From Somniosus microcephalus (lineage: Eukaryota), in assembly GCA_052327205.1 (NCBI GenBank), contig CM126220.1, positions 48,732,001 to 48,796,000 of the forward strand: DNA of 64,000 nucleotides, given 5' to 3'. Under the pieces are notes generated by a model, which did not search any database, had not been told where the DNA came from, and worked only from the letters and a program-made list of their open reading frames with translations. Below, in pieces: positions 9,307 through 63,406 of the stretch. Position 1 is the stretch's first letter. The number at the start of each line of letters is the position of its first letter. A program made the translations under genes and the position numbers.

Positions 9307-9734
9307 AATGTCTCTGGAATAGGCCACTGGTAGGTGTGTAAGAGGAGTGACTGCTAGTCCATTCCAATTCCTACTCCCGTCTCTTGATGATACAAAGCCT
9401 CCAAATGGCAACTTACATTAACGGACTGGCTAAAAGTGGGAATTCATGCTGTGCGGAGTGATAAAGCCATAACCTACTAAATGCTACCAAATTCTACTGT
9501 ACTTCAATACACTTTACAGGTGTATGAGCACCATGGTGGTTCAATGCATTGGAGGCACAACAAATTGTATTCTAGCAGTGGAACAACATCGTTTCAATCC
9601 CATTTCCTGAATTGCTGATCCTAATTTGCTGTTGTGGAATTGGTGTCAACTAAAGGCCAGGTATTGCCCAACAGGGAGAGTCCGCTTTTACAGAACAGGA
9701 CAAGTTGCCCATCTTTCAACCATAGCTGATCGAT

Positions 9735-9770
9735 GTTCTGACGAAGGGTCATCGACCTGAAACGTTAACT
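9735..9770 (+). ncRNA. Minimal type I hammerhead ribozyme motif
   Basis: GTT-CTGACGA-[AGGGTC ATC GACCT]-GAAA-CG-TT-AAC: intact core boxes, stem II, palindromic ACGT helix III, 3-bp stem I. Confidence 0.65.
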
Positions 9771-9836
9771 CTGTTTCTCTCTTCGCAGATGCTGCCTGAC
9801 CTGCTGAGTATTTCCAGCATTTTCTGTTTTTATTTC
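9735..9836 (+). mobile_element. Inverted Penelope pseudo-LTR copy
   Basis: Reverse complement of 9853-9950, tail-to-tail with a spacer of about 16 bp. Confidence 0.85.
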
Positions 9837-9852
9837 TAATATCTCCTATATA

Positions 9853-10440
9853 AGAACAGAAAACACTGTAAAAACTCAGCAGGCCAGGCAGCATCCGTGG
9901 AGAGAGAAACCGAGTTAACGTTTCAGGTCTGGGACACTTCATCAGAACTGGAAAAAAGCTGGAGATGTAACAGATATTAAGCAGGCGCAGAGACTGGGGG
10001 GGGGTGGAGGAAGGAATTGAAGGAACATACTGTGCTTTTGTAAGAGGCAGGAAAGATAAAATGTTGCAAATGGGAATGGCAAAGTCATACAGCATGAAAA
10101 ATGGAGGCAGGGGTTATAGTTTGAAATTGTTGAACTCAGTGTTGAGTCCGGCAGGCTGTAAAGTGCCTAATCGAAAGATGAGGTGCTGTTCCTCGAGCTT
10201 ACGTTGAGCTACATTGGAACAATGTAATAGGCCGAGGACAGAGAGATCAGAGTGGGAGTGAAGCGGTGAATTAAAGTGACAGGCGACCGGAAGCTCAGGG
10301 TTAACCTTACGGACTGAACGGAGGTGTTCCACAAAGCGGTCGCCCAATCTGCATTTGGTCTCCCCAATGTAAAGGAGACCGCATCGTGAGCAGCAAATAC
10401 AGTATATTAAATTGCAAGAAGAACAAGTAAATCGCTGTTT
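9853..10440 (-). mobile_element. Penelope-like element 3' portion (GIY-YIG endonuclease plus pLTR)
   Basis: FTCSSCNLIYCICCSRCGLLYIGETKCRLGDRFVEHLRSVRK...PVACHFNS...EQHLIFRLGTLQPAGLN. Confidence 0.9.
9913..9949 (-). ncRNA. Minimal type I hammerhead ribozyme motif
   Basis: AGTT-CTGATGA-[AGTGTC CCA GACCT]-GAAA-CG-TT-AACT on the minus strand; 4-bp stem I. Confidence 0.7.
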
Positions 10441-10444
10441 ATTT

Positions 10445-10567
10445 GTAATTTGCTCGAATATCTCCTATGTGGCTCGGTGTCAAATGTTGTTTGATAATAC
10501 TCCTGTGAAGCGCGTTGGGACGTTTTACATTACAGGCGCTATACAAATGCAAGTTGTTGTTGTTGTT
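10445..10567 (+). mobile_element. L2-type 3' tail
   Basis: CTCCTGTGAAGCGCGTTGGGACGTTTT...GGCGCTATACAAATGCAAG(TTG)n. Confidence 0.7.
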
Positions 10568-11822
10568 ACATGTTACCTGAGGCTGGGGCTTCTGCCGACT
10601 CAACTCTGAAGCAGCCACCAGGTGAAACGCGAGAGTGATTTGGAGACATCTCCTCCTCCATGTTCCTTCCTAGGTGCCCGACTCCGCTCAGTGATGGTAT
10701 CAGGTAATCATGAGGCTCTAACCCTTTGCACGATCACACTCCCATCCTACAGAGCAAAGCTTTTGGTGCTAACACGTTTAGGATTATAACTGAAAATAGT
10801 AATCACTCATTAAAAAGTCCCAATGTATATTATCCCCACTCATCGCGAGCAACGCCGAGGGCGATTCACTAGCTATAACTAAAATCAACAGAAAGGAGTG
10901 ACTTCAAATGTGCATCTGATCGGAGATTTGCTCTGTCAGTTAATGGCATCCACTTCTCTTGTATGCAGCCTTGTGATAGCTGGCTGCTATTCTGCATGAC
11001 GATTTTACATCAACATCGGTTAAATGGAGCATACGAAAGTCAGGTGATTATATTGTAATCTGGCAGCGAATCCATGAATCCAACCCTTTAAATGTATCGT
11101 GTAATCTGAGCATCTGAACACAGCTGTTTACACAAGATAAAGCACACACCAAAAAAAAGACTGGTGGTGGCGATGTTAAAAGATTTGTTATCGGGCGCGG
11201 TGCACTCAGCTGTCACTTCATGGTATGCGAACCGTTCATTCTTTGGGCGGCTCCAAGACAGTCAAGTTGAGGAGTTTGCACTGAGGTGCCTGTAATCCCT
11301 TTTTACCGATCAGTTATCGACCAGATCTCCAGTGCTGGAGCTCCACCCAGTGGAATGTATGCGAGTGTTCACAGAGCGCCAGCATACCTCGACATGCACT
11401 GAGAATGCACCGCCAGTCTTTGCAATGACATCGACGCCCCCCGCCAAAAAAAAAGCAAGGTCTAATTTGGCGGGTTGTTTTTTTTTGCTCTTCCTTTGTG
11501 CAATCCTAGCGGCCCGGACGATGGTGCGCCGCCCCCCCCCCCCCCCCCCCGCAACCCGGGCAATGTTTGGTGGCTGAGCCGAGCCTGGAGGTGTGGGTAC
11601 TTTCAAGCCCGGAGGCAACAATGTGTGTGATTGACAGCGCCGCCTCCAAACTGCTGCTGGCCCATCGCGACGCTGCAATGTGACCCCCTCGCCTTTGTTT
11701 CGAGGTGTGGAGAGGGTCAGTGCGACTGGACACCCCGGCGTCAGGCTTCAAGTGAACCGACACCACCACACACACACAAAAAAAAGCCTTGGCCGCTCTG
11801 GCCGAAACAAACTAATTAACAC

Positions 11823-15152: not shown

Positions 15153-15162
15153 AAAGTGAGGC

Positions 15163-16242
15163 TATGTAACACAGTGGGGAAGGTGTGTAAGACAGTGGGG
15201 AGGGTGGCTATGTAACACAGTGGGGAGGGAGGTGATGTAACACAGTGGGGAGGGAGGTGATGTAACACAGTGGGGAGGGAGGCGATGTAACACAGTGGGG
15301 TGGGAGGTGATGTAACACTGTGGGGAGGGAGGTGATGTAACACAGCGGGGAGGGAGGTGATTTAACACAGCGGGGAGGGAGGTGATGTAACACAGTGGGG
15401 AGGGAGGTGATTTAACACAGCGGGGAGGGAGGTGATGTAACACAGTGGGGAGGGAGGCGATGTAACACAGTGGGGAGGGAGGTGATGTAACACAGTTGGG
15501 AGGGAGCCGATGTAACACAGTGGGGAGGGAGGCTATGTAACACAGTGGGGAGGGAGGCTATGTAACACAGCGGGGAGGGAGGCGATGTAACACAGCGGGG
15601 AGGGAGGTGATGTAACACAGTGGGGAGGGAGGCGATATAACACAGTGGGGAGGGAGGTGATGTAACACAGTTGGGAGGGAGGTGATGTAACACAGTGGGG
15701 AGGGAGGCGATATAACACAGTGGGGAGGGAGGTGATGTAACACAGTGGGGAGGGAGGCTATGTAACACAGTGGGGAGGGAGGTGATGTAACACAGCGGGG
15801 AGGGAGGTGATGTAACACAGTGGGGAGGGAGGCGATATAACACAGTGGGGAGGGAGGCGATATAACACAGTGGGGAGGGAGGCGATATAACACAGCGGGG
15901 AGGGTGATGTAACACAGTTGGGAGGGAGCCGATGTAACACAGTGGGGAGGGAGGCTATGTAACACAGTGGGGAGGGAGGTGATGTAACACAGTGGGGAGG
16001 GAGACGATGTAACACAGTGGGGAGGGAGGCGATGTAACACAGTGGGGAGGGAGGTGATGTAACACAGTGGGGAGGGAGGTGATGTAACACAGTGGGGAGG
16101 GAGGCGATGTAACACAGTGGGGAGGGAGGCGATATAACACAGTGGGGAGGGAGGTGATGTAACACAGTGGGGAGGGAGGCGATATAACACAGTGGGGAGG
16201 GAGGCGATATAACACAGTGGGGAGGGAGACGATGTAACACAG
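15163..16242 (+). repeat. 25-bp minisatellite, about 42 units, TGTAACACAGTGGGGAGGGAGGTGA
   Basis: Direct reading; interspersed unit variants (GGTGA/GGCGA/GGCTA, TGTAA/TATAA/TTTAA, CAGTG/CAGCG). Confidence 0.97.
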
Positions 16243-16468
16243 CCGAGAGAAGGTATGCAACAAAGGCATCGCCTTCTATGGTGAGAATACCCTGCACCTT
16301 GGTGAAATTACTCGTGAGAAATTTCAAACCGAAAAAATATTGGCGAACATTAAAAGGGCATAATTGTCAAAAAAACACAATGACCTCGCCAAACTCATCT
16401 TCTGCCTACTCTGTGCAACAGACTGGAAATTTGATCGGAATAACTGGGACAAGAAACTTGGATAAAAA

Positions 16469-17236: not shown

Positions 17237-17692
17237 TCACGGGGAACCGCTCCTGCTTGACCGATCTTGTTTGGTTTCTAGTCCACTGACCAGGCGCTGG
17301 ATGTTCTGGAGCTCGTTGGGCGTTTCTTTCTCTGAACACTGTTTGGGCGACAGGGAGATCGATCCCGAGGATAGAGTCGAGGACCTGCTGTTCACCTCAG
17401 AGTCCAGGCCTGCCGACACAGGACTGGCTGCCATGCTGTTCACCTTGGCCTCGCCTGGGGCGGACATGGACGGCACGGCGGTGGTCAGCAAGCTGCTACT
17501 GTCCATTCCGGGCACGGGGAACGTGTAAGGGCTATACCTCAAGCGAGGCCGGACTGCGCTGAGGAACGGATGGCGATGTATAGAGGAGGCGACAGATGAT
17601 GGTACTCCACTGGGCATGGAGGCCGCGGCAGCAGCGGCCATGTACGTGTAAGGATAGGGGAAAAGGCTACCAAAAGGTGACATCGCAAGACC
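17237..17692 (-). CDS. TBX3: TBX3 coding exon 7 (456 nt including stop)
   Basis: [25 protein letters not shown]...RPRLRYSPY...[25 protein letters not shown]; typical TBX3 C-terminal repression region; spliced CDS totals 2169 nt, 722 aa. Confidence 0.96.
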
Positions 17693-18461
17693 CTGTCAAT
17701 GTAACAAGAAAAGTTAGTTTATATTTTAACAACTAATGCTAAGTACCGATAGCAATGAATGGATCACACTGGATTCCCGCGCTTACCAATAAATGAATGT
17801 TACAGACAAGACACTGAAATAATATCTATTTCATGCAGTAGCTTGTGCAGCTTTACCAACATGAAACAAAAATTAAAGAATGAGACCCCAGGCACTGTAC
17901 AGCACTTAAAACTTCTATAAATGCACACGCTTATAGGTTGTTTCTAGCAACAAAAAAAGGACTGTCTGTAATTATATGTAAATATCTTCATTATTCTCCT
18001 ACACCGAACCACAGAGGTCGCTCAAAAAGACAGCCAGAAAAAAATATGAAATGTGACATAGAATGAAAGACATATGGGTGTGATTCCCCCCAGCTAGTTG
18101 GATTACTTTATCTTAATTAATCTATATTTTGCATTGTAAGTGAAAGTATTATTTTTCTTTTAAGGTAATATATCCTGTATCAATTTATCTGTCGTTTAAA
18201 ATCATTCTCATGGTATCTTTAGAAACGAAAGTCACAGATTTTATGTGTTCTTGTTTATACAAAAATCTCTCAATATTTTACAGGTTATTCCACAAGGCTG
18301 CCAATTGAATTTTGCTCTCCGATAGCAGTGTGCCTGGTTTCCAACATAAAAAGACTGACAAAAAGCAAGACCTGCATTTAAAATACATTTGTCATACACC
18401 TATCAAAAGATGTAACTTTATAGCTAAAGGATCAATTAAGACGAGGAGGTTGGGGCTTTAC

Positions 18462-19126
18462 CTGAGAGGCCAGGACATGTTGTTGGAGGTGAAACGGTAG
18501 ACCTGCCGATGATCCACTTGGTAGTCCCTGCTGTGACGAAACAAGGGCGTCCAGGCCGCCGATCCCGCCTGCGGAGGCCGACATGGAGGCCAGCAGGTGA
18601 CCCATACCTGCTGCCATATTTGGGAAGGCCCCACCCATCGCAAACTGGCTTGGGTGCAAGAGGAGGGGATGTCCTGCGCCCAGCGGGGTAAAGAAGTGCT
18701 GGCCAGATAAGTTATGAGAAAAGGCGAGGTTCTGTAAATGTCCGTGGTTCAGGTGTGAGATACCATCCGTCTGGACTGTTAGGGGCGAATAGGGCTCCTT
18801 GTTTAAAACACTACACTCATCCGCTTTCTGGTGATGGTCTCGAACTGGACTTTTGATCTCGGGGCCCTCGCCATTAACGGCTCTAGTGCTTGAGGAAGTG
18901 TTTGTCGGGCTCTGCTGCGAATCCGTCAAGCTCTTGTCAGTTCTCGAGCTTTCATGTTCCCTAATTCTGCTCACAGAGTCCGATGGGCGCGGATGAGATT
19001 TCGTGGAATTGCGCTCCTCCTTTCGCTCCTCGGTGGTTGCGGAGAATTTTCCTGAGCCATTCCCTTCCTGAATGGGGTCATCTTTACTGTCTATGTCGCT
19101 TTCTTCTTCGTCACTTTGCAGAGCAC
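18462..19126 (-). CDS. TBX3: TBX3 coding exon 6 (665 nt)
   Basis: GALQSDEEESD...YSPLTVQTD...HPLLLHPSQFAMGGAFPNMAAGMGHLLAS...LPFHLQQHVLASQ; acceptor TTTTCCAG, donor CAG|GTAAAG. Confidence 0.95.
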
Positions 19127-19666
19127 CTGGAAAACAGAAAATAAAAAAAGTAGAAGGACCAGCTAAAATATAGTGGCATTTTCCCAAACGACACGGTCAG
19201 TAACATTGCGCGCTCACTCCTGATATAAATCCGAATGCAAAGCCACAACACTGTTGAGTGCACAGGCAGTGGCAATTCAGGTGCGACGAATCCAAATTCT
19301 GTCTTTTTAGGGTTTTATTTCTGCACTTTTAAAAAAAAATCATGAAAAACTGCTGTTTTATTAAATACAATTTCACTGAATACGGAGATTAATAATTCTA
19401 AGTCTGTTTAAAACAATGAAACCCTACAAAATTCCAGTAGGCGGAGAAGGCTGGCAATAGATTTTCACGATCTAATTCTATTCTAGGAGATTTATTTGTA
19501 AGTAAAAGCGCTTGCTGCATCTTGTCCGGGGTTACTTCGGTTGTGAAGTGATAAGGATCTTCAACACAAACATACACCCAATTAATGTGCGAGAAAAACA
19601 CAAACTTAGTCGCGCCTTATAAAAAAAGAACAAACAAGCCCCTTGTGTAGGCAACAAAATAATAAC

Positions 19667-19830
19667 CTTTTAAGTTCGCAGTCCCTGGAGTGGAAACAGC
19701 GGGGGACGCGGACTGGCCGAAGCATTTGAAAGCGGGCTGCTCGCTGGATGAATCGTCCGATGTCCCATTTTCTTTCGAACCCTTCTGCTGTTCTTCGTAG
19801 ACTCGGAGCGATTGAATTGCCAACTGCTTT
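19667..19830 (-). CDS. TBX3: TBX3 coding exon 5 (164 nt)
   Basis: [54 protein letters not shown]; acceptor GGAACAG after a pyrimidine tract, donor G|GTTATT; phases consistent. Confidence 0.92.
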
Positions 19831-20244
19831 CTGTTCCAAGAAAAAAAGGGGGACAATGCCTTAAGATATTCGTTATCAAATAGGTGCCCATGTCGTTTCA
19901 GTTTCATTTCACCCGAGAAATCGAACACATTCTATTGGTGTTGGCTCATGAGGTGGTGTCTTGTGCAGCAATACTCTGTGGGAATGTCTTACGGCTAGAG
20001 AACGCCTTCGCATTTTCTAAAAATAAAACAGCGAAAAACACCAAGTGCAAAAACGTCAAACATAAGATGAAAGACACAAGTCTGTAGCAAAATGTAACAA
20101 GCACACGACAAGAAGCCCTCATTTTCTCTTTCTGGGTTACTGAGACGGTGACAGTTCTGTATCAGATTGTGGTTAAAATCATGAATATAACGAGGCCCAA
20201 CAGTCCACCGATTGACAAATAGACCAGAATTGAATCAATCTCAC

Positions 20245-20321
20245 CTTTTCTCTCTTCTCCCATTCCCCGTGTCACGAAAGCCTTTGGCAAATGGATTGTT
20301 GTCGATTTTTAACTGGGTTAT
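20245..20321 (-). CDS. TBX3: TBX3 coding exon 4 (77 nt, end of T-box and start of NLS)
   Basis: ITQLKIDNNPFAKGFRDTGNGRREK(R); acceptor CATCTAG, donor GTGAGA. Confidence 0.96.
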
Positions 20322-21873
20322 CTAGATGTAAAAATAACAGGTTTGATACTTTCCCGTAATACAATACAGCATCAACTACCGCCTTCATTAAAAATGCGCA
20401 GGCTCTTAAGAATGCTGCTGGAAGTTACAGGTGGAATGCAGAGACTAGACAGCAGCATTACTTTACCATTACATTATTGTTTCGGATTATTATTTAAAAG
20501 TAAATAAATGTAGAATTATGTTAAAGCCGCCACCGCATTATATACAGTCAATGGTAACGTTGTACCAATATTTTAATGGTACAGCCCATTGTATGTCTCC
20601 ACCTGGTCTGTGGCTCTAACATTTCCTGCATTTTAATTCTGCACTGGTCCCATTAAAGGCTGGGCCAACACTGAACACAGCCATGCTGTAAGATTATATC
20701 AGTGCGGAAACTATGGTCCTGAATTCAGTTTTAAGGCATTTAACGCGGTGTCTTTATTTTATTAAATGTGAAAATACAAGGAGCAAATCACATATCTGCC
20801 CTAAAGTAAAGCATGCTCGATTCATGATAAACCGCGTGTGAGCTAGCACAAGACAAGTAGGTACTTTATCAGTGAGATAGGGTGAAGCTAGTCTAGCGTC
20901 ACCATCGTAACTTGCCCTCTGTTGACAACAAGTCAACAGTAACTTTATTGTCACTTATCATCTTCATTTCAATAGGGTAGAGAATCTAACGAGATTGAAA
21001 TCATTGTCCTTTTAATAATGAACTGAAGATAATAACCCAGCAGTACACGAAACACAAATCCAGAAAAAAAATCAAGTCATGGACTCTGTTAAAGTTGCCT
21101 CATTTATCAAGTTAACACCCTTTTCGTTATCAGCTTTTATTCCCTCTGATTTGAAACTCCCCACAATCAACAGTGCGGCGATCAAGTATTATCAAGTCAC
21201 TACACACAGTGTACTTCACTGTAATTCTTATTAATAACGTTAGCTGACTAGCTAGAAGTGTGATGAGATGTTAAATACCAACAGAAGAGTTCCAAGTTCC
21301 TTAAAAACGATTTGGGTGAACTCATTAACATTAATTGTTCATCATCGCAGGCTTGATACCTGTACTGAGGACACTACAAATCTCTTTGACCTAAATTTCT
21401 ATCAGATTCATCCAAGAACATGCACTGCCTATAAACAGTGCGAAAAGTCTCATTTGTTTTTCAATGACTGTAATTTAATAACAGTTTAGAAATCTATTAA
21501 ATCCTATTACCTCGCAGTGCAAAATTGATCTGAACGCACGGCCCAGACAAACATATGCATATACAGGAGAGCGTTGTGTCTGCTTCCACACAACTCAAAC
21601 CATGCTAACACCGATATCACAAAACAAAGCATAAAATCTCAATCAGCCCCAGTCTGCGCAGAATATTCAACAAGCATTCTTGTGCATTTAATGAAACTCC
21701 GGTATCTAACATTGAAAATCGTATTGACCAGAATAAACAATTGGGATACAGACAAGAAAACAAAGTTTCACTAAGGCGTCGCGCTTTTATCTTTTTGGTA
21801 CAATAGCTACAACGTCTCACAAGGCAAATCGACATTCTATATAACAAGCAACACTGCCTTTCTGCACAAATTA

Positions 21874-22044
<171 letters not shown>

Positions 22045-23113
22045 CTAAAGAGAATAAATCAAACAATTACAATTCGCCCAAAGCGCATGGAACTGTACAA
22101 CATGCTGTGACTGCTCTGGATTCAGCCAGGCTGATCCTCGGTTCTGCTGCTGCCAAATTTAGTATAATATCGTTTTACTGATTAATCGCACACTGCTTGT
22201 TAATGGTTGATCAGCAATAATATAAACTAATAGACAGTCAAAAGGATTTTACAGGAGGGGACAGAGTTCAGCGGGAGTGTAAATCCGTCTTTCCACATGA
22301 ACAGCTGACGGCGGGGTAACCTTTGCATTATGGCCTCCCCCACTGTTTGGGGGACTTGCAAAAATAAAACTATGATTTAGAAATATATTATATATATCTA
22401 CATATATATATATAGATAGATATAGATATCTGTATCTCTCTATATAATATAATATATATATAAACCGCCACCATAATTCACAAACAATACTGACATGCAC
22501 TATAATAATTGGGAATGCTATGTGTTAAATACTAAGTGACTAGTATACAAGCATAAATAATTTCGACTTGTCTAGTGTACTGTTTTTTGAACGTCTCATT
22601 AAAATGCACTGACTCCGGAGCTACTGCTATCGTCATTGTTGTTACAGTGGCTGGATACTTTGTTTCTCTCCAGCGAGCATAATGCATTAATACATTGCAG
22701 ATTTGGCAAAGTATGTTAGTTTTAAAATATTTCGCACTACAGATCATTGTCCATTACTCAGATTTATAAACTGAAAATGGGGAGAGAAAGTTGGCATGTG
22801 ACTAAGCCTTATCACTTTTCAGTTCCATAGAAAATTGTCAAATATGATCCTAATGATTAAATACTTGCAATCCCAGATACCTAAAATGGCCGATCTACAC
22901 AATACCCCAGGTTATGAGCACACACATTCATGATATGCAGAAAAAATACAAAAAGCAAAACCCTGTAGAGCCCTCCATGCTACACAAGTAAGTGCGAAAA
23001 AAATGTAAACTCCGAATAGGGAAGATATTTTAGCATTTTACTGCTAAGTAAATACATATCACTCATCGGTTACGATTTGTTTTTAAATCACTCGACCAAA
23101 TTATTGAAGATTA

Positions 23114-23443
<330 letters not shown>

Positions 23444-24584
23444 TTAATCTGTCAATAATGTAATCCTCATGAAAGTAAAATAAAGAGTTAAGATTTCTAT
23501 AGTATTTTTGAGATTGGGGCCTTGACTCAGGTATTTACTACTGTGAAATATTTGAGACAACACATTTCAGTAATGCTATTTTATAAAACTATTGCAAAAC
23601 AGCAACCGAGTTCTTTAGATGCCTTGTCAAGTGTGTTTTAAAGTTTACATATACAAAATCCTGCTCTTTATAAATGGTGCAAGAAGAAGCTAGTGAGTAG
23701 ATTCTACCTGGGGATATAGATTTCAATATTTCTGGTATGACTGATATGTACATGATTAATACCCTGCCCAAGGTATGTGTGCGTTTTCTACCTGAGGAAG
23801 GCCGCGGCTGACTCAAAGTTTATGGTTTTATAATCACCAACAATTGGTGCCATAAAAAAACTGTGCGCGAGTTAAAATGTTCCCATCACAGGTGTCGTGG
23901 AAATACTCTACCATACCCTTTCCCCCAAAGATAAATTGCAATTCCCCCTTTGGAATCTACGTATTGGTTTGGAGCTTTAATCGTGCAATCGGTGCACATT
24001 ATTTACAAGGCGGCCGCTGGTTCATTACTGTTATTGCTCAGATCAAATGAATGGATAAATTAAACTTCGGCAAGTCAGATTCATCAACCGGCTCTCTGCA
24101 GATCACATGTGACCTTCCCCAGCACAAGCAAGAACCTATTTCAATTAATTTCATTAGCATTTATTAAAATTAAATATTTGTTCGAGGTTGTGCCCTTATT
24201 AGTCTGACGATCTGGATTGTCTCATCGCCTAAACAATGGTGCAGAATAAAGGGTTCGGAGACTATGACTATTCCAATAAATAAGTGACTTCATATATCGT
24301 AAAGCTAGCTGCCGAGACAAACTGTATCACCAAAATGGATCATTATGCAGGAAGCATTTTTTAGTCTAAGTGCTGTAAAAGCCCTTGGCAGATTACACCC
24401 AAATATAAATGACCGCTTTTCTCAATCAAATCTATTTTGCATGTTTTAAATCCTACATTGCACTAAAAATATATGATATTTTATCCTGTGTCACAACTAA
24501 CCACGGCTGGGTATTAAAATAACTCGTATGATCTCCAACCAGAGAGGCTGGCACTCGTCTCTTGGATGGAAAAATGCGCTGTAC

Positions 24585-24976
24585 CTTCCAGATTTGGTGA
24601 TAACCATTTCAGTGCCACGCTTGTGAAACTGATCCCACAAATCTTTCGCTTCGAGTATAACTTTTGGGTCGTCTTCCACTTCTTCTTCGGGCTCCAGAGT
24701 CTTAAGAGGCCTCAGATGCGAGGGCTGGTGGCCCATTGACGATAAAGCGATCCCAGCCTCCGCTGCGCCGACAAGCTGATCCATAATGGGCTTGCTAAGC
24801 GCGCCCGGGAGTGTTAGAGCAGCCGCGCCGGTCGGAGGCAGGGCGAGAGTCGGGAAGAAAGCAGGCTGATGTCCCAACACAGCACTCATCGCAAAGTCCG
24901 GTGCCCGGTGAGGTAAGAACGGATGATAAGCCATACTTGTCCCCGGAATCACTGGCTCTCTCATCAGTAAATTCAT
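24585..24976 (-). CDS. TBX3: T-box transcription factor TBX3, coding exon 1 (392 nt)
   Basis: [38 protein letters not shown]...[30 protein letters not shown] matches the TBX3 N-terminus and T-box start; donor AG|GTACAG at 24584. Confidence 0.97.
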
Positions 24977-25134
24977 CCACTCCCCAGATCTCTGTCGGAC
25001 GGTCGCTCACAAGCACATCATTATCATCATTATTTATTATTATTAATTTCTTCTTCACATAAACAGAAAGTAAGACTGGTTGGCGGTGGCAGAGCCGAGA
25101 CGCATCTCCCCAAACAGTCAACTCCGATCTTTCT

Positions 25135-46907: not shown

Positions 46908-47110
46908 AAAGTAGTCGAGGTGCGGTTATCTTGCACTGCCAATAATTCAGCAGTAGATAGAATAATGTCACACCGCGAGAGATGGAAGTGGCGAAAGAAA
47001 TGTCACCGATTTATACAGTAGGAAAAATAGATACCAGAAAACCGTCATAGACCCTTTAATGCTGGAGGACAAAAATATGTTACTTAAGGGGAACAACCAA
47101 CAGACGTTAT

Positions 47111-47370
47111 AAAAGCAAATACTGCGGATGCTGGAAATCTGAAATAAAAACAGAAAATACTGGAAACACTCAGCAGGTCAGGCAGCATCTGTAGAGAGAG
47201 AAACAGAGTTAACGTTTCAGGTCGATGATCTTTCGTCAGGATCAGTTTGACAGTGAGTGAACCTTATCCTCTAACGAAGGGTCATCGACCTGGAACGTTA
47301 ACTCTGTTCTTCTCTCTACAGATGCTGTCTGACCTGCTGAGTATTTCCAGCTTTTTCTGTTTTGATTACA
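47111..47370. mobile_element. Head-to-head pair of Penelope pLTRs with hammerhead-like motifs (47207-47239 minus, 47271-47303 plus)
   Basis: Both arms homologous to 9735-9836; minus motif keeps CTGACGA and GAAACGTTAAC, plus motif is mutated (CTAACGA, GGAA). Confidence 0.85.
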
Positions 47371-49814
47371 GACTCTACAATATTGGTTTCAGATTTTTTT
47401 ATGCACTTTAGAATTGGCCCGCTGATTTTGAACACATCGGTTATGTGTTAGAATTCACGGTTTTTCCCATGTTCAGTGTATTTTGACAAATTATGTACCT
47501 ATAGTTGACCCCACCTATCAGTACCGCAAATGTCCGACAGAGGATAAGGTGAGACATTCGCGTTAAGGTTAGTGGCAGGTCGCCTGCCCCTGTCGTACAC
47601 GTGTGCTGTCTACTTGGTTTTAGTGGCCAAGTCTCTGCGAACGAGCGGGTTCACTGACTGTCAAGCTGATCCTGACAAGCCCTGTCAGTGGTACCAGTAT
47701 GGCAGGAATGGTGGTCACGAGTCGAACAAGGCATCATCTGCGCCAAGCTAGATGGTACAGCATTACCAAAAAAATACAAGCAGCACTGCAGCTGCACAAC
47801 TTAAGTTTACTTGGCTGAAATACATATATATATATTATATCCACAATCAGAACCTTTCCCAAATAAATTTAAAGCCATTTCCTGACTGGGGAACGCCACC
47901 AACAGCAGTAAAAACTTATTCAAGAACAAAATGTTAACAATTACTTTGCACGGCATGTTGATGTATTCGAATTTAAAGATTACGTCCGCGCCAACAGTAT
48001 CATATTAAAATTGTCTTTGCATTCACAATCTCTGCAATTATTGTAGGCCTGGGAAAGAAAGGTGTGGCGGCTTGAGTTAACAATAAAGACGATGTTATCG
48101 CGCTCATTTTAAAACAGCAAGACCCGGAACATATATCGCATCCCTTACAAGCGACCTAACAAATAGAACAAAACTATCGTACAGGTAAGGGTGCAAGTAT
48201 GTAAACCTAAGCAAGTGAATGCAATCAGATAGAAACACAGGCAATCCCAAGAGTTATATTTTACAGCAGGTCAGTCAGTATCTGAATTGACAGAAAGACA
48301 GCGTTCCGGGTGTAACCCGTCCTATTTCGGAGACGCTTTTGCGGTTCACTTAAAAGTGAACGCTTCATTATTGGATTGTAAAGGCATTATTCTTCTAAAC
48401 CTATTACCTAATGGTGCCTTTGTAACTTGTTAAGTCAAGTTATTGACTTGCGAAATTCACTTAATGTGATTTGATATCGTACGACTTTCATTCTGTTTCC
48501 GAATGGTCGAAGTTGTTTGCACTTCGACGGATTCTATGGTTGTGCCGGTTTTGTTTCAGCAGTATTATTCCCCGTACCTGAAACCAGCCAAACGGCAGAT
48601 TTATTTCCAGAAAATACTAATTAGTTCAACTGAGGTGCGAAGATAGAGTGGAGTTATTCGCGATCCGCTTTTTAATTACATATGAACAATTGTTGATTGG
48701 AATAGATGTCCTTTCAGTATAGCAACCCATGGGTATTTTAAGCCCATGTTGATATTGGGGCTGATATAGTGGTTGTAAAAAAACATTCCTTGCCATCTAC
48801 TGAATAAAGTAAGAACAAGGACCGTGCTGGAATAACACGTGCCTGCCAGTTCTGCAAATTTAGGTCATAATCCATACCTATGCAAATACTCATTTGTACC
48901 GTTTTGCCATTAGCTAATCAACCGAATCGCTGAGTGTAAACATGTTACAGGCTGTGGGGCTATACGACAGGCAGTCTTCGGTATAACTTTATTAGAAATG
49001 CATTCTCTTGGTTCTTTAAATTAATCTGCCATAACGTTTCATCTCCTCAGTTACTGATTATTGAACAGAAAGGCACCTCTTCCGATTCGTTAAACAAGTC
49101 GATTCGTTTTGGTCTGGCGGATGGTTTGATTGTATTTGATACTAATCTTCGTTAGCAATTGCATTTTTATCCTCCCGATATTTTTTTTTTGTAACCCGGT
49201 CCAAGAATATTCTTCAATCTAGAAATAGTTTCCTGGCGCTTCGTTTTCTTCCTGGGGCAGACATTTCCTCGGGGATAATGTTGGGTATTGTTTCTCCCGA
49301 CTGCTATAAACTTACACGCCAAAGTGCAGCCTTTGATCACAAGCATATCTGTACCCGGGTCTGACAGTTAAAAAATGCAGACCTTTTTGGAGCTCATTTA
49401 ACTGCCGTCAATAAACTCTCAATAAGGTCATTCAAACTGAAAATACACTTTTTTTCTTGGGCTGGAGGCGGGCGCAAGGTCGCACCGAAGGTAACGTATC
49501 CGAGCTCAGGTATTTCTGAAACAAGATAATCATCAAAAGCGCCTATCTTTAATCGGCGTGAGGTCCATTGTCAGATAACGTGTGTGTTTAAAAAAATAAC
49601 ATTTTGCCTTTTTCTGGCGCTGCAACATTATGTTAAAACGATTAATCTCCTGAACAGGTGTGGAGATTCTTCTTCAAATTCAATTTTAATCCTAATCGAA
49701 AAGGTATCGAGCTAGAATATGACCACTAATAGAAGACAGAAATGACTTTAAGCATCAGTGGCTATTTAATGAATATGGGTTATTCTGCAGTCATTACTCT
49801 TTGCAAAACCCTGC

Positions 49815-51400: not shown

Positions 51401-53264
51401 TACACCACTGCCTCCATGAATCGTGGGTTGGATCTGGAAAAGTACCAAGAATGTTCACATCATGGGACTTCCTGAGGTTATGCAATCAGCTTGGAATCAT
51501 GGATTTGAAATTCTTAACTATATTATATACATATATGTTAGACACATATATATATATATCAATTTTTAAATCTATGATTATACACACACACATATATATA
51601 AATTAAATATTCACTCTTTTTTGACTGGGTTCCGTATACAGGTTTGTTCGCGCACATTTAATATATGATAACCTTTTTAGTTTACAGCCGGTTAACAGTT
51701 CACGAATCTTGCAAAGGAGTCATGAACGACAATATTTTAATCAGAAATACCAAACGACAGGTACGAGCTGGTTTAATCAAAACTATTTGCTTAAACATAT
51801 GCATATCGAGAGATTTCCTAACCAAAAATATTACCGTTGTAAACTGAATGACTCTAGAATGTGCAGGCTGCGTGTAGTTTGCGCCTCACACCTTATATCA
51901 TTGACCAGGGATGGTCATTGCGAATTGTCTCCTGTCTGTACTCAATTCGCAGTAACAGACCGACTTTTTAATGAATGTTAGGAAAAAGAATTTTCATTGT
52001 TAATATCAATGTGGGTAATTAGCAATGGAACTAAAAATACACGAAGAGTTATCGTAAAGTTACATTAAAGTGATAAAATGATTTGTCAAAGCAGATTCTA
52101 CTGCTTTTCTTCAGCCACAAGACTGCAAAATACTCACCGAAATTATGTTTCTCAGCTCAAAACCGACTATAAGTGTTGTGAATATTTGAGTGCATGGTAT
52201 ATGATAAATATCTAATTGTGAGATCCAGGTAATGTGATCCCAAAACAAGAAAATAATGGAGTCCCATGTAGTTAAAACAAAACTTAACAGTCTCTGATCA
52301 TAGTTTATTCACAGCTTTTATTTACTCCTAAGTTGTGGAGATATTTACTACATGTCATGGGTGACCATGATATATTTTTTAAATAACTGTCTTGAGTCTC
52401 ACTTTCGAGTGAACTGGTTGATTCATGGAATATGAGATAATGCTGATGCTGTAAGCCAGATTGGTTTCATTTATTTTCCCGGGTCAGGTTTTGAACAAGT
52501 CTTAAGTTTTCACGATGTGTATCACGCTCATTTAAACCACCATCATTACATTTGTCAGATTTTCTCAGTTTAGAAAGATTCCACTTCCCGCTAGTTTCTG
52601 GATCCCCAAAAGCTGTGTTATTGGATGCCGTTTGCCAGGAAATATCCCCTCTCACAGTACAATGTCCCTCTGTCATTGGGAGATCACAGCAGCATCAGAA
52701 ATGTGGTATCCTGGATACAGTAGTGCTCTGAGAGGAAATCTCTTGAAAGGAACAAACGAGGTTGTGATTGGTGCTCATTCGAAATAGTTTAAATATTTTG
52801 ATATACGTGGCAAATAGAAAGCACAAACAAAAATGCGCATTGTTAGCATCAGAGAATAGACAGTGCGACTAACAGGAGACAAAAGATGGAGATGTCAGTG
52901 ATTCAGCTGTATGGTGCAGTGGCACAAGTTAGCTTCGACCACCAGCCAATGCCGCTGGACATTAGTCATTAGAAAAGCATTAAAAAAATTAATATGAGTT
53001 CCTGCGATGATTCAGTTGATAGTAAACTCGCCAGTGCAAGAGAAAACATCCAGGGATAAGTTCGGGTAATGTAACACTTGTGGATAAATATGCATATTTG
53101 GCTAGTAAGAAAATCTTCACCGAAATACATAGCCGTTGCCATAGTAACCCTTAACGTCAGGCCATTTTCATATTTGTTTCAAAAGGAATATCGGCCTTTT
53201 GCAGAAAAAGGGAGAAAAACAAATGAAGAAAAAAGTCGGAAACAAACGGGGATATGAAAACAAT

Positions 53265-53332
53265 GCAGGCCAGGTTTTTCCAGCGTTTTCTGTTGTTATT
53301 TCGGATTTCCAGCATCCGCAGTATTTTGCTAT
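53265..53332 (+). mobile_element. Penelope pLTR fragment
   Basis: TTCCAGCGTTTTCTGTTGTTATTTCGGATTTCCAGCATCCGCAGTATTTTGCT is homologous to the reverse complement of 47111-47165. Confidence 0.65.
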
Positions 53333-53649
53333 CATATGAAAACAAACATCGGCAGAAAGTCCAAGAGAAAGAGTAGAGGAGACATAGAAAAACTAATAGA
53401 TAGAAAAATAGAGAGTGGGAGATAAGCAGAGAGATTGTTACAGAAAGAGAAACAGTTAAAGAAAACTTTTCTCCAGGAGCTATGCTATGAGAGGTCAACA
53501 AGACTTACATTTATGAAAATAAGGAAAGTTCGGGGGTGGGAGTGGGGGGGGGGGGATCATTAGCTTATAGACGGGACATTCATTATTCTAATGTACAAAC
53601 TAATACGTTTAGGCTTGCATTTCTAAATGAAGAAGCCTCAAATCACTTC

Positions 53650-57946: not shown

Positions 57947-58410
57947 GCAACAACAAAAACAATTTGCATTTATATAGCACCTTCAACATATGTAATTCTT
58001 CCTTATTCAGGTTAAGAATAATAACAACAACAACAACTTGCATTTATATAGCGCCTTTAACGTAGTAAAACATCCCAAGGTGCTTCACAGGAGTATTAAA
58101 AGACAAAAAATTTGACACTGAGCCACATAAGGAGAAATTAGGACAGGTGACCAAAAGCTTTAGGCAGGGGATTCCAGAGCTTAGGGCCTAGGCAACAGAA
58201 GGCATGGCCACCAATGGTTGAGCGATTATAATCAGGGATGTTAAAGAGGGCAGAATTGGAGGAGCACAGATATCTCGGGGGCTTGTGGGGCTGGAGGAGG
58301 TTACAGAGATAAGGAGGGGTGCAGCCATGGAGGGATTTGAAAATAAGGATGAGAATTTTGAAATTGAGGCGCTGCTTAACTGGGAGCCAACGTAGGTCAG
58401 CGAGCAGAGG
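57947..58410 (-). mobile_element. L2 3' end (58023-58410) plus a separate short tail fragment (57947-57990)
   Basis: (CAA)n-CTTGCATTTATATAGCGCCTTTAACGTAG... and GGATGAGAATTTTGAAATTGAGGCGCTGC, the L2 ORF end on the minus strand. Confidence 0.8.
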
Positions 58411-58584: not shown

Positions 58585-61513
58585 TTGTGTATAGTGCCAA
58601 CATGTTCCCGTAAAGGTCAAGGGTGGGACCAACAATTCCAGGGAACCCTGGATGTCAAAGGATATACAAGAATGGATTAGGAAAAAAAGGGAGGCTTTTG
58701 GCAGATAAAAAGGACTAAAAACAATGGAAGCCCTAGAGGAATATAGAAAGTGCAGGGGGGTACTTAAAAAAGAAATTAGGAGAGCGAAGAGGGAGCATGA
58801 AAAAACACTGGCGGGCAAAATAAAGGAAAATCCCAAGGTGTTTTAAAAGTATATTAATGGCAAGAGGATAACCAGGGAAAGAGTAGAGCCCATTAGGGAC
58901 CAAAGTGGCGATCTGTGTGTAGAGCCGGAAGATGTAGCTGAGGTTTTTATTTAATATTTTGCATCTGTGTTCACTATGGAGAAGGGCGATGTAGGCATAG
59001 AAATCAGGCAGGGGGATTGTGATATACTTGAACAAATTAGTATTGAGAGGGAGGAGGTGCTAGCAGTTTTAGTGGGCTTAAAAGTGGATAAATCCTCAGG
59101 CCCAGATGCGATGGGCTGGATTTTCATTGAGGAGGCGGGTAGGAGGCAGGACCACAACTTTTGGGGATGTAGTCCCGCCTCCATTGAGTTCTAGCCAACC
59201 CAAGTGATTTTGACTTGATTGAACTTGTTGAGCCCACCCAGCGGGCTCAGCAGGCCAATTAAGGGCCACCTGGCAACAGGTGATGTCACAGATTGATATT
59301 TCATCTATCAAGACCTTTTGACAGATGAAATATTAGCGTTTGACAGCTGTTTGAAGCTGTCAAACACTGACAATCTGTACTCCAGGTTAATTCCTTCCTC
59401 TCAGGATGATTTAGAGATTTCCCCCGAACAGAAAGCTGAATGCTGGAACTTTTGACAGCTCGCGGCCATTCTGCTTTCTGTACCGGTGAGATGAGGGACT
59501 CCCGAGACCTGAAGGAAGGAAGGCTGTAAAGGTAAGTACATGTAAGTAAAATTTCTTTAAACACTTTACACACATCAAACACACTTACCTCTGCACTCAT
59601 GCACCCATCACTCACCTGAACACCGGACATCTCGACCTCTCCAAGCCCTTCATCCTGACGGTCCGCCTTGCTAACTTGGTGTGGTTTGGAGCCATCGGGA
59701 ATCCCACATTTCACCAATGAAAATAGGGATTAGGCTAAAAACTGCATCTTAACTACCTGTTAACAGGCAGTTAATTGGCACTAATCTCCTTCCCGCCTTG
59801 GGGAGGCAGGTCCCAGTGCGGGTACCCGCCTCCTTTGATACTGGCATGGAGGCAGGTTGGGGGCGAAATGGGTTCGTGCCCCCCGATTTCAGGATTTTAA
59901 CCCCCCACATGCCTCCAATCCCGCCTCCACGGCCCAATGAAAATCCTGCCCGATGTATCCCAGGCTGCTGTGTGAGGCAAGGGAGGAGATTGCAGGGGCA
60001 CTGACACAAATTTTCAGAACCTCTCTGGCCACAGGGGAGGTGCCAGAGGACTGGAGGACAGCTAACGTAGTACCATTATTCAAGAAGGGTAGTAGGGATA
60101 AACGAGGGAATTACAGGCCAGTGAGCCTAACATCAGTGATAAGGAAATTATTGGAAAAAATTCTGAGGGACAGAATCTGTCTCCACTTGGAGAGGCAAGG
60201 ATTAATCAAGGATAGTCAGCATGGCTTTGTCAGGGGTAGATCATGTCTAACCAATTTGATTGAATTTTTTGAGGGGGTGACTAGGTGTGTGGATGAGGGT
60301 AGTGCAGTTGATGTAGTCTACATGGACTTCAGTAAGGCTTTTGACAAAGTCCCGCATGGGAGACTGGTCAAGAAGGTAAGAGCCCATGGGATCCAGGGCA
60401 ATTTGGGACATTGGATCCAAAATTGGCTTAGTGGCGGGAGACAGAGGGTGATGATTGAAGGTTGTTTTTGTGACTGGAAGCCTGTGTCCAGTGGTGTACC
60501 GCAGGGATCGGTGCTGGGTCCCTTGCTGTTTGTAGTAGTAGTGTACATTAATGATTTAGATATGAATGTAGGAGGTATGATCAGTAAGTTCGCAGATGAC
60601 ACAAAAATTGGTGGAGTGGTAAATAGTGAGGAGAGAAGCCTCAGGCTACAGAATGATATAGATGGGTTGGTCAGATGGGCAGAACAGTGGCAAATGGTAT
60701 TTAACCCTGAAAAGTGTGAGGTGATGCATTTTGGGAGGACTAACAAGGCAAGGGCATACACAATGAATGGTAGGACCCTAGGAAGGACAGAGGATCAGAG
60801 GGACCTTGGTGTGCATGTACATAGATCCCTGAAGACAGCAGGACAAGTAGATAAGGTGGTTAAAAAGGCATATGGGATACTTGCCTTCATTAGCCGAGGC
60901 ATAGAATATAAGAGCAGGGAGGTTATGATGGAGCTGTACAAAACGCTAGTTAGGCCACAGCTGGAATACTGTGTGCAGTTCTGGTCGCCACACTATAGGA
61001 AGGATGTGATTGCATTGGAGAGGGTGCAGAGGAGATTCACCAGGATGTTACCTGGGCTGGAGCGCTTCAGCTATGAAGAGAGACTGGACAGGCTGGGATT
61101 GTTTTCCTTAGAGCAGAGAAGGCTGAGGGGGGACCTGATTGAGGTGTACAAAATTATGAGGGGCATAGATAGGGTAGATAGAGGGGAACTTTTCCCCTTA
61201 GTAAAGGGGTCAATAACCAGGGGGCATAGTTTCAAGGTAAGGGGCAGGAGGTTTAGAGGGGATTTGAGGGAAAACTTTTTCACCCAGAGGGTGGTTGGAA
61301 TCTGGAACTCACTGCCCAAAAGGGTGGTAGAGGCAGGAACCCTCACAACATTCAAGAAGCATTTAGATGAACACTTGAAACATCATAGCATACAAGGCTA
61401 CGGACCAAGTGCTGGAAAATGGGATTAGAATAAACAGGGCTTGATGGCCGGCATGGACACGATGGGCCAAAGGGCCTCTTTTTGTGCTGTATAACTCTAT
61501 GACTCTATGACTA
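58585..61513 (+). mobile_element. 5'-truncated CR1 LINE; RT-containing ORF2 remnant open for 491 aa (59953-61428), split by a MITE
   Basis: QHGF, DFSKAFD, GVPQGSVLGP, KFADD motifs; CTATGACT tail; in-frame stop near 58844 and a frameshift in the 5' part. Confidence 0.95.
59113..59951. mobile_element. MITE family B (839 bp), PIF/Harbinger-like, nested in CR1 ORF2
   Basis: 17-bp TIR GGGCTGGATTTTCATTG / CAATGAAAATCCTGCCC (1 mismatch); TSD GAT; removing it restores CR1 GPDAMYPRLL. Confidence 0.92.
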
Positions 61514-61824
61514 AGTACACATCTAAGGTAACAGGAGGTTTTTGCTTTCAAACCTGCTATTATACTGGTGTCAATGCAATCTAATGTTGAGAGTGCTTAC
61601 TAAATGTCAGCAATATTAATGTAAGTGAGATTTCATTTACCATTCTAGCTGGCTGTAGGATGACTGAAGCATGGGTAAAACCTGTATGGTTGCAACTTTT
61701 AACCAAAACTTTTGTGGTACTGGAGGTCACCTTCCTTTTTCTTCTGGTTGGAAAAAATTGACTATCTTGCTAATTTTCCCCAAATAGTAGAAACTACATT
61801 GTTCGTAGAAGGCTGATAACCTTG

Positions 61825-62052
61825 AACCAAAACCAGAAAATGTTGGAAACACTGAGCAGGTCAGGCGGCATCCGTGGAGAGATCGGATCAGTTAACATTT
61901 TGTGAGTGGGTCCTTCTTCAGTATTGTAGTTCCAGTTTTGATGAAGGGTCCACATCTGAAATGTAACTGTTCTCACCACAGATGCTGTCTGACCTGCAAG
62001 GTTCTATCCAGCATTTTCTTTTTTTGTTTCAGATTTGCAGCATCTGCTTTTT
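61825..62052. mobile_element. Older head-to-head pair of Penelope pLTRs with degenerate hammerhead motifs
   Basis: Same architecture as 47111-47370; cores CTGAAGA..CAAAATGTTAAC (minus) and TTGATGA..GAAATGTAAC (plus). Confidence 0.75.
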
Positions 62053-63406
62053 GACTGATAAACTTGCATGTGCTTGAGTGCTTATATCCAGAATACTGTC
62101 ATCCCTTTGTAGTGGTCTGAGCAAGCAGTGTAACAGCATGCTTCCTATATACACAAGTACAGAAATTATGCATGTACTGGTCCAACACTGCCAACTTAGT
62201 GGCAGCATTACATATAACAACTGGCATGAGGTAAAAGAGAATGTCAATGTGTTGGCATTAGATCCCAATGTCTAATCCTTCCTAGATGTTTTAATGATTT
62301 GGCTTTAAGGTCTTTAATAGTACAGCGCAGACTGTACCCAGAGTGAGTCATGTTGGAATGATTCCAGAACCTGAGGTGACTACTAATGTGGAGACTAGGC
62401 ATCGCAAAGTAAAATAAGGGATTTGTCTCTCATTCTGACACCTTCCATAAACATGAGTGTAAGACTTCCATTAAGTTTTCTGTCTTTACCTGTGCGGCTA
62501 ACAATTAACATCTCCAAATTAAAGAGAATGGAAACCTGATTTCCTTACTTCATCTTTGCCATTTCTGTTTAATATTGCAAATGTATACTGTATTAGTACA
62601 AAGTACCATACTCATGGTATTTTAACTATCTAAAGTGGGTGCATCACATGCTTGCTTTTAATTTAGAATTAATTCCAAAATTTGTACAAATTTACGATAA
62701 CGACTTTTTTCAAGTTGAGAAACCATGACAAATATCTGACTTGAAATGTACAATTTGATTTTTTTTTTAAACCCAGCAGAAATCACAAATAGCCAGCTTT
62801 TATTTTCTAATGAAACTTATGACATTTAATGTATTACATAAAATGATGATGACAATTCCTGAACTAGAACTTATTTTGTGTGGTCTTATGGGAGTAAGTC
62901 AAATGGAACTATGTGCCCCAGCAGTTAAGTGCAACAAAATACTTAAGCATAAATGTCAATAATAATTAGATTGTCCAGCCTCTCCACTGACTTGACATTC
63001 TGACATTCTCTCTATAGCCCTAAGTTGAAGTGTTCAGTTTTATGAATTCAAAATAACGTTTGGCAGTAGGACTGAAAACAGATCACAATAATATTACAAG
63101 AGTCTCTGTGGGAATAAGAATATAAATATATGGAGCAGATGGGCTTTTCTCTAGTCAGATTCTTCATGGATCACTTGTTCGTTTCCCAGTTCTGGTTGAC
63201 ATCAATTTGGCATGTTTCAAGAAACTCTTTATAGTGAAAGATGAGATGAAATATGTATAACCAACACTCAAATGGTATAAATTTCAAATATACAAGCTCC
63301 AATCAATCTTTGCAGAAATACTCAAGAAACTAAATCTGTGTACCTTTGTCCTTTTAAGTTGATGAGTTCAAGAAGTAATACATGTATTTTTCATTCCTCT
63401 TTTAAT

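Follow-up and report, generated by a model that had tools for sequence, protein, structure and literature searches.

What two hammerhead-like motifs, set in an inverted repeat, are doing in a shark genome is the question raised by this locus. The repeat lies in the 64-kb stretch of DNA analysed here (the window), where two arms of 99 nt each (9735-9833 and 9850-9948) are 85% complementary and flank a 16-nt spacer. CUGANGA, a hairpin, GAAA, CG, UU and AAC are present in both arms, referred to here as copies A and B. The initial annotation took them for two intact minimal hammerhead ribozymes, of a type that cleaves as dimers, within inverted terminal repeats of Penelope-like elements (PLEs). 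We hold, with high confidence, that both motifs, predicted ribozymes by their sequence, are inert passengers derived from the 3′ pseudo-LTR (pLTR) of a known type of PLE.

Anatomy of the two motifs

The hammerhead of copy A occupies 9735-9769 on the forward strand, with C3 at 9738; that of copy B occupies 9913-9949 on the reverse strand, with C3 at 9945. Both were delineated by motif search, a descriptor and folding, and the register of A follows that in the available text of PMC4209133. In A, stem I has 3 bp (9735-9737/9767-9769), CUGANGA (9738-9744) is followed by an unpaired A (9745), stem II consists of five contiguous pairs with a G-U closing pair (9746-9750/9754-9758), and GAAA (9759-9762) precedes CG, U16.1 (9765) and U17 (9766), the predicted cut being at 9766|9767. 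The family has a fourth stem I pair, which is missing from A through 5′ truncation at 9735. In B, stem I has 4 bp (9949-9946/9916-9913), CUGANGA lies at 9945-9939, the unpaired A at 9938, GAAA at 9924-9921 and the predicted cut at 9917|9916; stem II (9937-9933/9929-9925) contains a U-C mismatch at 9936/9926, its second pair (10.2-11.2). Cutting at a GUU site is slower than at GUC. The palindrome ACGU (the 15.1-16.1 segment) is found in A and B and in two further copies, C and D, of the seven that the window holds. A 4-bp intermolecular helix III can be drawn from it, and the proposal of a palindromic dimer helix III with a predicted cut after GUU agrees with this anatomy. GUU also figures among the active, permitted NUH sites in the available text of PMC3138052.

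The description of stem II in the initial annotation needs revision. It placed the differences between A and B in a bulge and a loop, such that pairing was kept. The published motif has an unpaired base after CUGANGA, here an A, and in that register the change in B becomes the U-C mismatch within the stem. For A, the published register is the more stable (-4.4 vs. -0.3 kcal/mol for the bulged one). For the stem II of B taken alone the order is reversed (+2.2 vs. -0.3 kcal/mol), and B may therefore keep a weak helix II. The pairing base, G, was found at 9936 in 813 of 839 reads of RNA run X21 and in 1437 of 1541 reads of run X22, and it makes up 99% of the contig depth in the DNA runs X2 and X4. 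Since 93-99% of family reads or depth differ from B here, its letter is a private or rare change and not covariation. The 10.1-11.1 pair is A-U in C and G-U in A, a one-sided change, and no two-sided stem change is present among the six motif-bearing copies in the window. On the side of the reads, the 40 family differences listed out of 330 carry no linkage. As to the motifs being intact, both are present and all 11 core positions are kept in A and B, as in C (they are changed in the window copies D, E and F). Yet A has lost its fourth stem I pair and B fails a strict descriptor. A is the only one of the six motif-bearing copies with both stems kept.

Could boxes as short as these have turned up by chance alone? 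In the 64-kb window, the loose pattern CTGANGA N8-38 GAAA shows no enrichment (6 matches vs. 5.49 expected; 55 of 100 shuffles reach 6), and no Rfam hammerhead family was found at the locus up to an E value of 5. Core columns are also no less variable than the rest among A-D (2/11 vs. 22/85; Fisher p 0.73, at low power), a null result that is expected because A-D are dead copies, in which selection would not be seen. Against these points stands the strict descriptor, custom-made for minimal hammerheads (stem I of at least 3 bp, stem II of at least 4 contiguous pairs), which has a single match in the window, copy A, and any match in only 1 of 100 first-order simulated windows. Counted from the core, stem II of copy B has one contiguous pair, and B is recovered only once the descriptor is relaxed to that number. 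Moreover, the motifs occupy the same position in a PLE pLTR as in the literature, and their extra unpaired base and palindrome lie outside the loose search. We thus regard chance as a nearly negligible explanation. The motifs are real, namely minimal type I hammerheads in PLE pLTRs, and to judge from their sequence they are predicted ribozymes.

Separate insertions of an elasmobranch Penelope family

Copy A is a solo 3′ pLTR end (9735-9836, +) of 102 nt, 5′-truncated inside stem I and ending at the tail-less end of the family; in loose ends of reads, family sequence extends before 9735 and, as the optional tail, after 9836. Element B (9850-10456, -) is a 5′-truncated PLE insertion of 607 nt, also ending in a pLTR without tail, and is made up of about 13-16 nt of filler, the C-terminus of an endonuclease, the 3′ region and the pLTR end. 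That each pLTR starts with stem I is therefore true of A only, as B runs some 500 nt further upstream into the endonuclease ORF fragment. A 12-bp target-site duplication surrounds B: its left copy (9838-9849, +) is identical at 12/12 positions to 10457-10468, the 12-mer occurs only these two times in the window, and its score was matched by 3 of 300 random site pairs. Nothing comparable was found when a duplication was sought around A, around A and B together, or around both plus the adjoining tail piece. This tail piece of another repeat (10457-10566, +), with a (TTG)n end, is abundant (8 further window matches at E 0.009 or better, and high read depth), and its extent also draws on the upstream context of a copy at 58139; B was inserted at its 5′ edge, and the right duplication is the first 12 nt of the piece. 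Presumably it is of L2-LINE type.

A and B are joined at their 3′ ends, tail-to-tail on opposite strands, and they differ at 15 of 96 positions, vs. 7 between A and C and 10 between A and D. Given this arrangement, these differences and a duplication around B alone, they are two insertions and not the inverted terminal repeats of one element. For the same reasons of orientation and duplication, we also rejected the idea that they represent the 5′ inverted pLTR of a single insertion. B is not old, as shown by an ORF fragment that is still open and a duplication without mismatch. The likely course of events would be that A was laid down as a 102-nt 5′-truncated end abutted by the tail piece, that B entered this piece a few bases from its edge, on the opposite strand and with duplication of 12 bp, and that both copies decayed thereafter. 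In other contigs (29 of X2 and 15 of X4), the short end of the pLTR (9835/9836) is joined on the opposite strand to 10564/10566. Such joints suggest an insertion bias for the (TTG)n microsatellite tail, or the reverse.

Five further copies (C-G) bring the number in the window to seven. C (47110-47239, -; tailed) and D (47270-47367, +; without tail) form a head-to-head pair. C has lost stem I and has a mismatch in stem II, D is changed at G5 and A13, and the repeat flanking the pair is weak (8/10, with a score of 4 that was reached by 28 of 300 random pairs). E (61825-61921, -; without tail) and F (61930-62054, +; tailed) are likewise head-to-head, with both cores decayed, and are enclosed by a 12-bp repeat matching at 11/12 positions and spanning 61813-62066. 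G (53264-53333, +) is a tail end only, without a hammerhead, and has a perfect flanking repeat (53252-53263 and 53334-53345, 12/12); it starts with about 11 nt resembling an inverted pLTR piece. Clean target duplications of about 12 bp are thus seen for B, G and the E/F pair, and the tail is present in C, F and G and absent from A, B, D and E. The short end is fixed, the tail beyond it is optional, and the head-to-head pairs combine a tailed with an untailed copy, all of which fits the published picture of PLEs. The available text of PMC8557442 describes insertions that are 5′-truncated, carry an inverted copy at their 5′ end and have an optional tail of 30-40 bp, and that of PMC11167929 explains the two 3′ ends of an anole element by two starts of reverse transcription. 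A weak 21-nt match (48264-48284) did not align with the family and was left out. The stretch 48264-48340 (-) is a more distant repeat with the downstream pLTR motif and a decayed hammerhead-like part (a GGAA box and a longer stem II region), and is probably another PLE family.

The nature of the parent element can be read from the C-terminal fragment of its ORF in B (10114-10443, -), which is open to the stop codon and was identified as a GIY-YIG endonuclease by Pfam, homologues and tblastn. The Pfam match on the fragment itself has an E value of 0.0013, below the curated cut-off, and tblastn with PLE proteins matches 10443-10105. Homologues of the endonuclease number 37 among 346 longer candidates; those named to species come from sharks, rays and skates and are 62-76% identical. 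GIY-YIG was found in 5/5 scanned homologues (above the cut-off in P0002 and P0030), and weak RVT_1 matches in two of these five (P0002 and P0017), the reverse transcriptase (RT) lying outside the truncated copy B. A CX2-5CxxC linker is visible in six aligned homologues, with a cysteine missing from one of them; the truncation of B lies downstream of this linker. Located between RT and endonuclease, this motif marks Neptune and Nematis (PMC8557442, available text). The family thus appears to be an abundant elasmobranch PLE with RT followed by a C-terminal GIY-YIG, Neptune-like by the linker motif of its relatives. The homologues and the published anatomy bear out the earlier assignment of the motifs to PLE pLTR ends with minimal type I hammerheads in an elasmobranch host.

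The endonuclease of this PLE also turns up in several ray and skate gene models whose names or domains have no relation to it (P0003, P0004, P0010 and P0012; kinase-domain, receptor-transporting protein, mucin), probably through mis-annotation or exonisation. In the metagenome scan, all 6 loci were GC-rich, lay outside the family and lacked an upstream hammerhead; viral contigs gave 0 family loci and no PLE relative, and an actinobacterial MAG gave one locus in the scan for further family copies. Within the window, a 495-codon open frame at 59941-61428 (+) matches RVT_1 at E 1.7e-32. It belongs to another retroelement, since it has no tblastn match to PLE proteins.

The window also holds a T-box gene with exons at 17237-25006 (-). 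The best PDB match of its exon is TBX3, TBX2 is not among the matches, and the gene is presumably TBX3 rather than TBX2. The distance given earlier, about 6.5 kb 3′ of TBX3, is somewhat short: the stop codon at 17237 lies 6.8 kb from the 5′ end of B and 7.3 kb from the motif pair. Just 3′ of the gene is a long low-complexity tandem array (15162-16366) with repetitive open frames on the minus strand.

Folding, transcripts and competing explanations

Read-through of the locus would give a hairpin of about 99 bp of great stability (-140.7 kcal/mol on the forward and -145.2 on the reverse strand; z -15.7 and -17.9). Any one transcript contains a single sense ribozyme, paired to the antisense of the other copy, so no dimer can form in cis, and for this reason the locus is most likely inert. 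Folded alone, A and B give hammerhead pair probabilities of 0.02 or less. For A:A, B:B and A:B alike, the active dimer is 15-23 kcal/mol less favorable than the cofold minimum (for A:A, -7.7 vs. -22.9 or -30.4 kcal/mol; for B:B, +4.7 vs. -11.4 and +3.5 vs. -20.3). Nearest-neighbor energies leave out the contacts made in the core and by stacking, and so under-rate the active fold. When A, B and C are folded, the GAAA box of each is engaged in another hairpin, with bases lying 3′ of stem I (9759-9777). Both sides of this hairpin are changed in D (47292-47311) and could still pair, a single case. From these models, the hairpin is possibly an off-state.

Transcripts were sought in two RNA-seq runs, X21 and X22, of which about 24% and 31% were read; a DNA contig of the organism is identical to 9400-9759. 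Family reads are plentiful (18,475 and 36,139 placed), nearly all of them less than 99% alike. On the unique flanks (9400-9707 and 10588-10700), depth was 0 in both runs. Over the ORF piece, the two runs lean to opposite strands. No pile-up of read starts or ends was seen anywhere in the two runs, the predicted cut site included, and fragmented RNA libraries are blind to many ribozyme ends. A pile of loose ends before 9786 was considered as a truncation hot spot and rejected, A having private changes at 9783 and 9785.

As to where the copies begin, five of the seven start at or just before C3 (A by 3 nt, C by 0, D by about 1, E by 0 and F by 8; positions 9735, 47239, 47270, 61921 and 61930); B starts in the ORF and G far downstream, and none of the seven starts at the cut site GUU|AAC. 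As A and B retain the whole core, their templates were uncleaved RNA. It is conceivable, if doubtful, that the hammerhead region and not the cut site fixes the start of short copies in this shark family. If so, a transcription start, a splice acceptor or a protein-bound fold would mass-produce hammerhead-headed copies of about 100-130 nt, these would be a SINE-like or retrozyme-seeding by-product, and thousands of copies would be at hand for testing the role of PLE hammerheads. Immediately upstream of the core, the family does have what looks like a branch point with a 3′ splice site (CTAAC, a T-run and CAG). A splice acceptor was nevertheless not supported: no splice-type joint at 9947 is among the joints listed (15 of 291), RNA loose ends before 9735 have the unspliced consensus, and the copy starts scatter from -8 to 0.

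How do other accounts of the locus fare against these observations? One account takes A and B for a working pair of intact ribozymes that belong to the terminal repeats of a single element and dimerize with each other. It draws on the 11 core positions and ACGU kept by both, on the passage of A through the strict descriptor and on the negative energy of the active A:A dimer. But lying on opposite strands, where each copy pairs to the antisense of the other, they could not dimerize in cis, and a dimer in trans would need both strands transcribed. The long hairpin competes with it, stem II of B is mismatched, the active dimers are far above the minimum and the target duplication encloses B only. 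The inverted pLTRs described in the available text of PMC8557442 are 5′ and head-to-head, whereas A and B are tail-to-tail. We consider this account highly improbable. We give hardly any credence to another, in which co-option has turned the two tail-to-tail copies, downstream of the T-box gene, into a dsRNA hairpin or a regulatory element. The hairpin is indeed very stable on both strands, read-through of the gene would reach B in sense at 6.8-7.3 kb beyond the stop codon, and Rfam miRNA models match it weakly. Such a match is what any long hairpin gives, however (MIR7504 at 47.9 vs. a gathering threshold of 83 bits), and the unique flanks have no RNA reads in 2/2 runs. Three inverted pairs of the family occur in 64 kb, and the relative X4 has no contig on the left flank.

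A further proposal concerns the family rather than the locus, and is compatible with the latter being inert. It holds that the family hammerhead is no longer a nuclease and serves as a protein-bound folded signal, as the 5′ boundary of the template, or as an overlap with the start of the next ORF. The copy starts near C3, with none at the cut site, agree with it, as do the lack of an RNA-end pile-up and the GAAA-box hairpin that A, B and C each show when folded to minimum energy. Furthermore, the frame from an in-core ATG or ACG is open for 31 codons in 4/4 copies read, and in the anole the PLE ORF begins inside its hammerhead (PMC11167929, available text). But 31 open codons arise by chance about once in five, three of the four copies have ACG, and the starts cannot exclude cutting, because copies bearing the core come from uncut RNA. 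The complete catalytic pattern is kept, and related motifs do cut, if weakly. On balance we find the proposal unlikely. We prefer the view that the motifs at this locus are inert passengers of a family whose active parent would most likely cut. In the parent, co-oriented hammerheads in a partial-tandem transcript would cleave after GUU as a dimer, with ACGU pairing with ACGU as helix III and the strands of stem I exchanged. To judge from published work on PLEs, such cleavage would be weak and probably aided by the protein of the element.

Relation to known hammerheads

Minimal hammerheads (min-HHRs) are known from the pLTRs of metazoan PLEs (Cervera and de la Pena, 2014, PMC4209133). The available text of that paper treats the base left unpaired between positions 9 and 10.1 as a fixed trait of the class, reports monomers to be inactive and dimers weak, and notes that the intron of Drosophila virilis Penelope ends at helix I. 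The shark motifs share with those described there the type I topology, CUGANGA and GAAA, the unpaired base, a short stem I, a palindromic 15.2-16.2 segment, the lack of a loop 3 and the location in a pLTR. Most copies in both cases are solo and truncated, and opposite-strand pairs lie about 100-700 bp apart. Stem I is about 4-5 bp in min-HHRs, 4 bp in B and 3 bp in A. Compared with the same text, the shark motifs differ in their elasmobranch host, in a stem II of 5 bp vs. 7-8, in a G-U closing pair vs. G10.1-C11.1 and in having U as residue 17. Dimer-cleaving PLE hammerheads are credited to Lunse et al. (2016/2017) in the available text of a review (PMC6765202), and that of PMC8557442 calls the function of PLE hammerheads unclear.

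The hammerhead of an anole PLE cuts only with protein, and in vitro the element can insert without this hammerhead (Frangieh et al., 2024, PMC11167929, available text). As described there, this element, Poseidon PAc of Anolis carolinensis, has in common with the shark family a pLTR hammerhead, two 3′ ends with an optional tail between them, AT-rich insertion, including beside its own pLTR, and no RNA-seq ends at the cut site. It differs in that the relatives of the shark family carry the CX2-5CxxC linker of Neptune and Nematis.

No paper found in the literature on hammerheads, ribozymes and Penelope in sharks, elasmobranchs and cartilaginous fish names the shark family, and shark terms are absent from the searchable supplement of PMC4209133. 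The kind of motif has been published since 2014, and the elasmobranch family joins a motif class already reported from fish, coelacanth, amphibians and reptiles. The locus itself matters little, both copies being damaged and mis-oriented. As the family is abundant, has clean duplications of about 12 bp and seems to start its short copies near the core, a shark genome would be good material for distinguishing cutting in vivo from another mark on the template.

In Xenopus, 8 of 9 dimers did not cut and one was active (Li, Clavereau and Pollet, 2026, bioRxiv 10.64898/2026.07.22.740005). The available text of this preprint also reports hammerhead tandem repeats in one chondrichthyan genome and PLEs in five vertebrate classes. 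Its non-LTR retrozymes share with the shark copies hammerhead units derived from a pLTR, but a retrozyme is defined there by two or more units in co-oriented tandem, each with its motif complete, and none exist at the A/B locus. The classification of A and B as a non-LTR retrozyme was rejected, as they are inverted and tail-to-tail. Elsewhere in the genomes, the 102-nt unit does occur head-to-tail (a joint of 9836 to 9735, in 7 contigs of X2 and 2 of X4), and these units, not the A/B locus, are candidates for working dimers or retrozymes.
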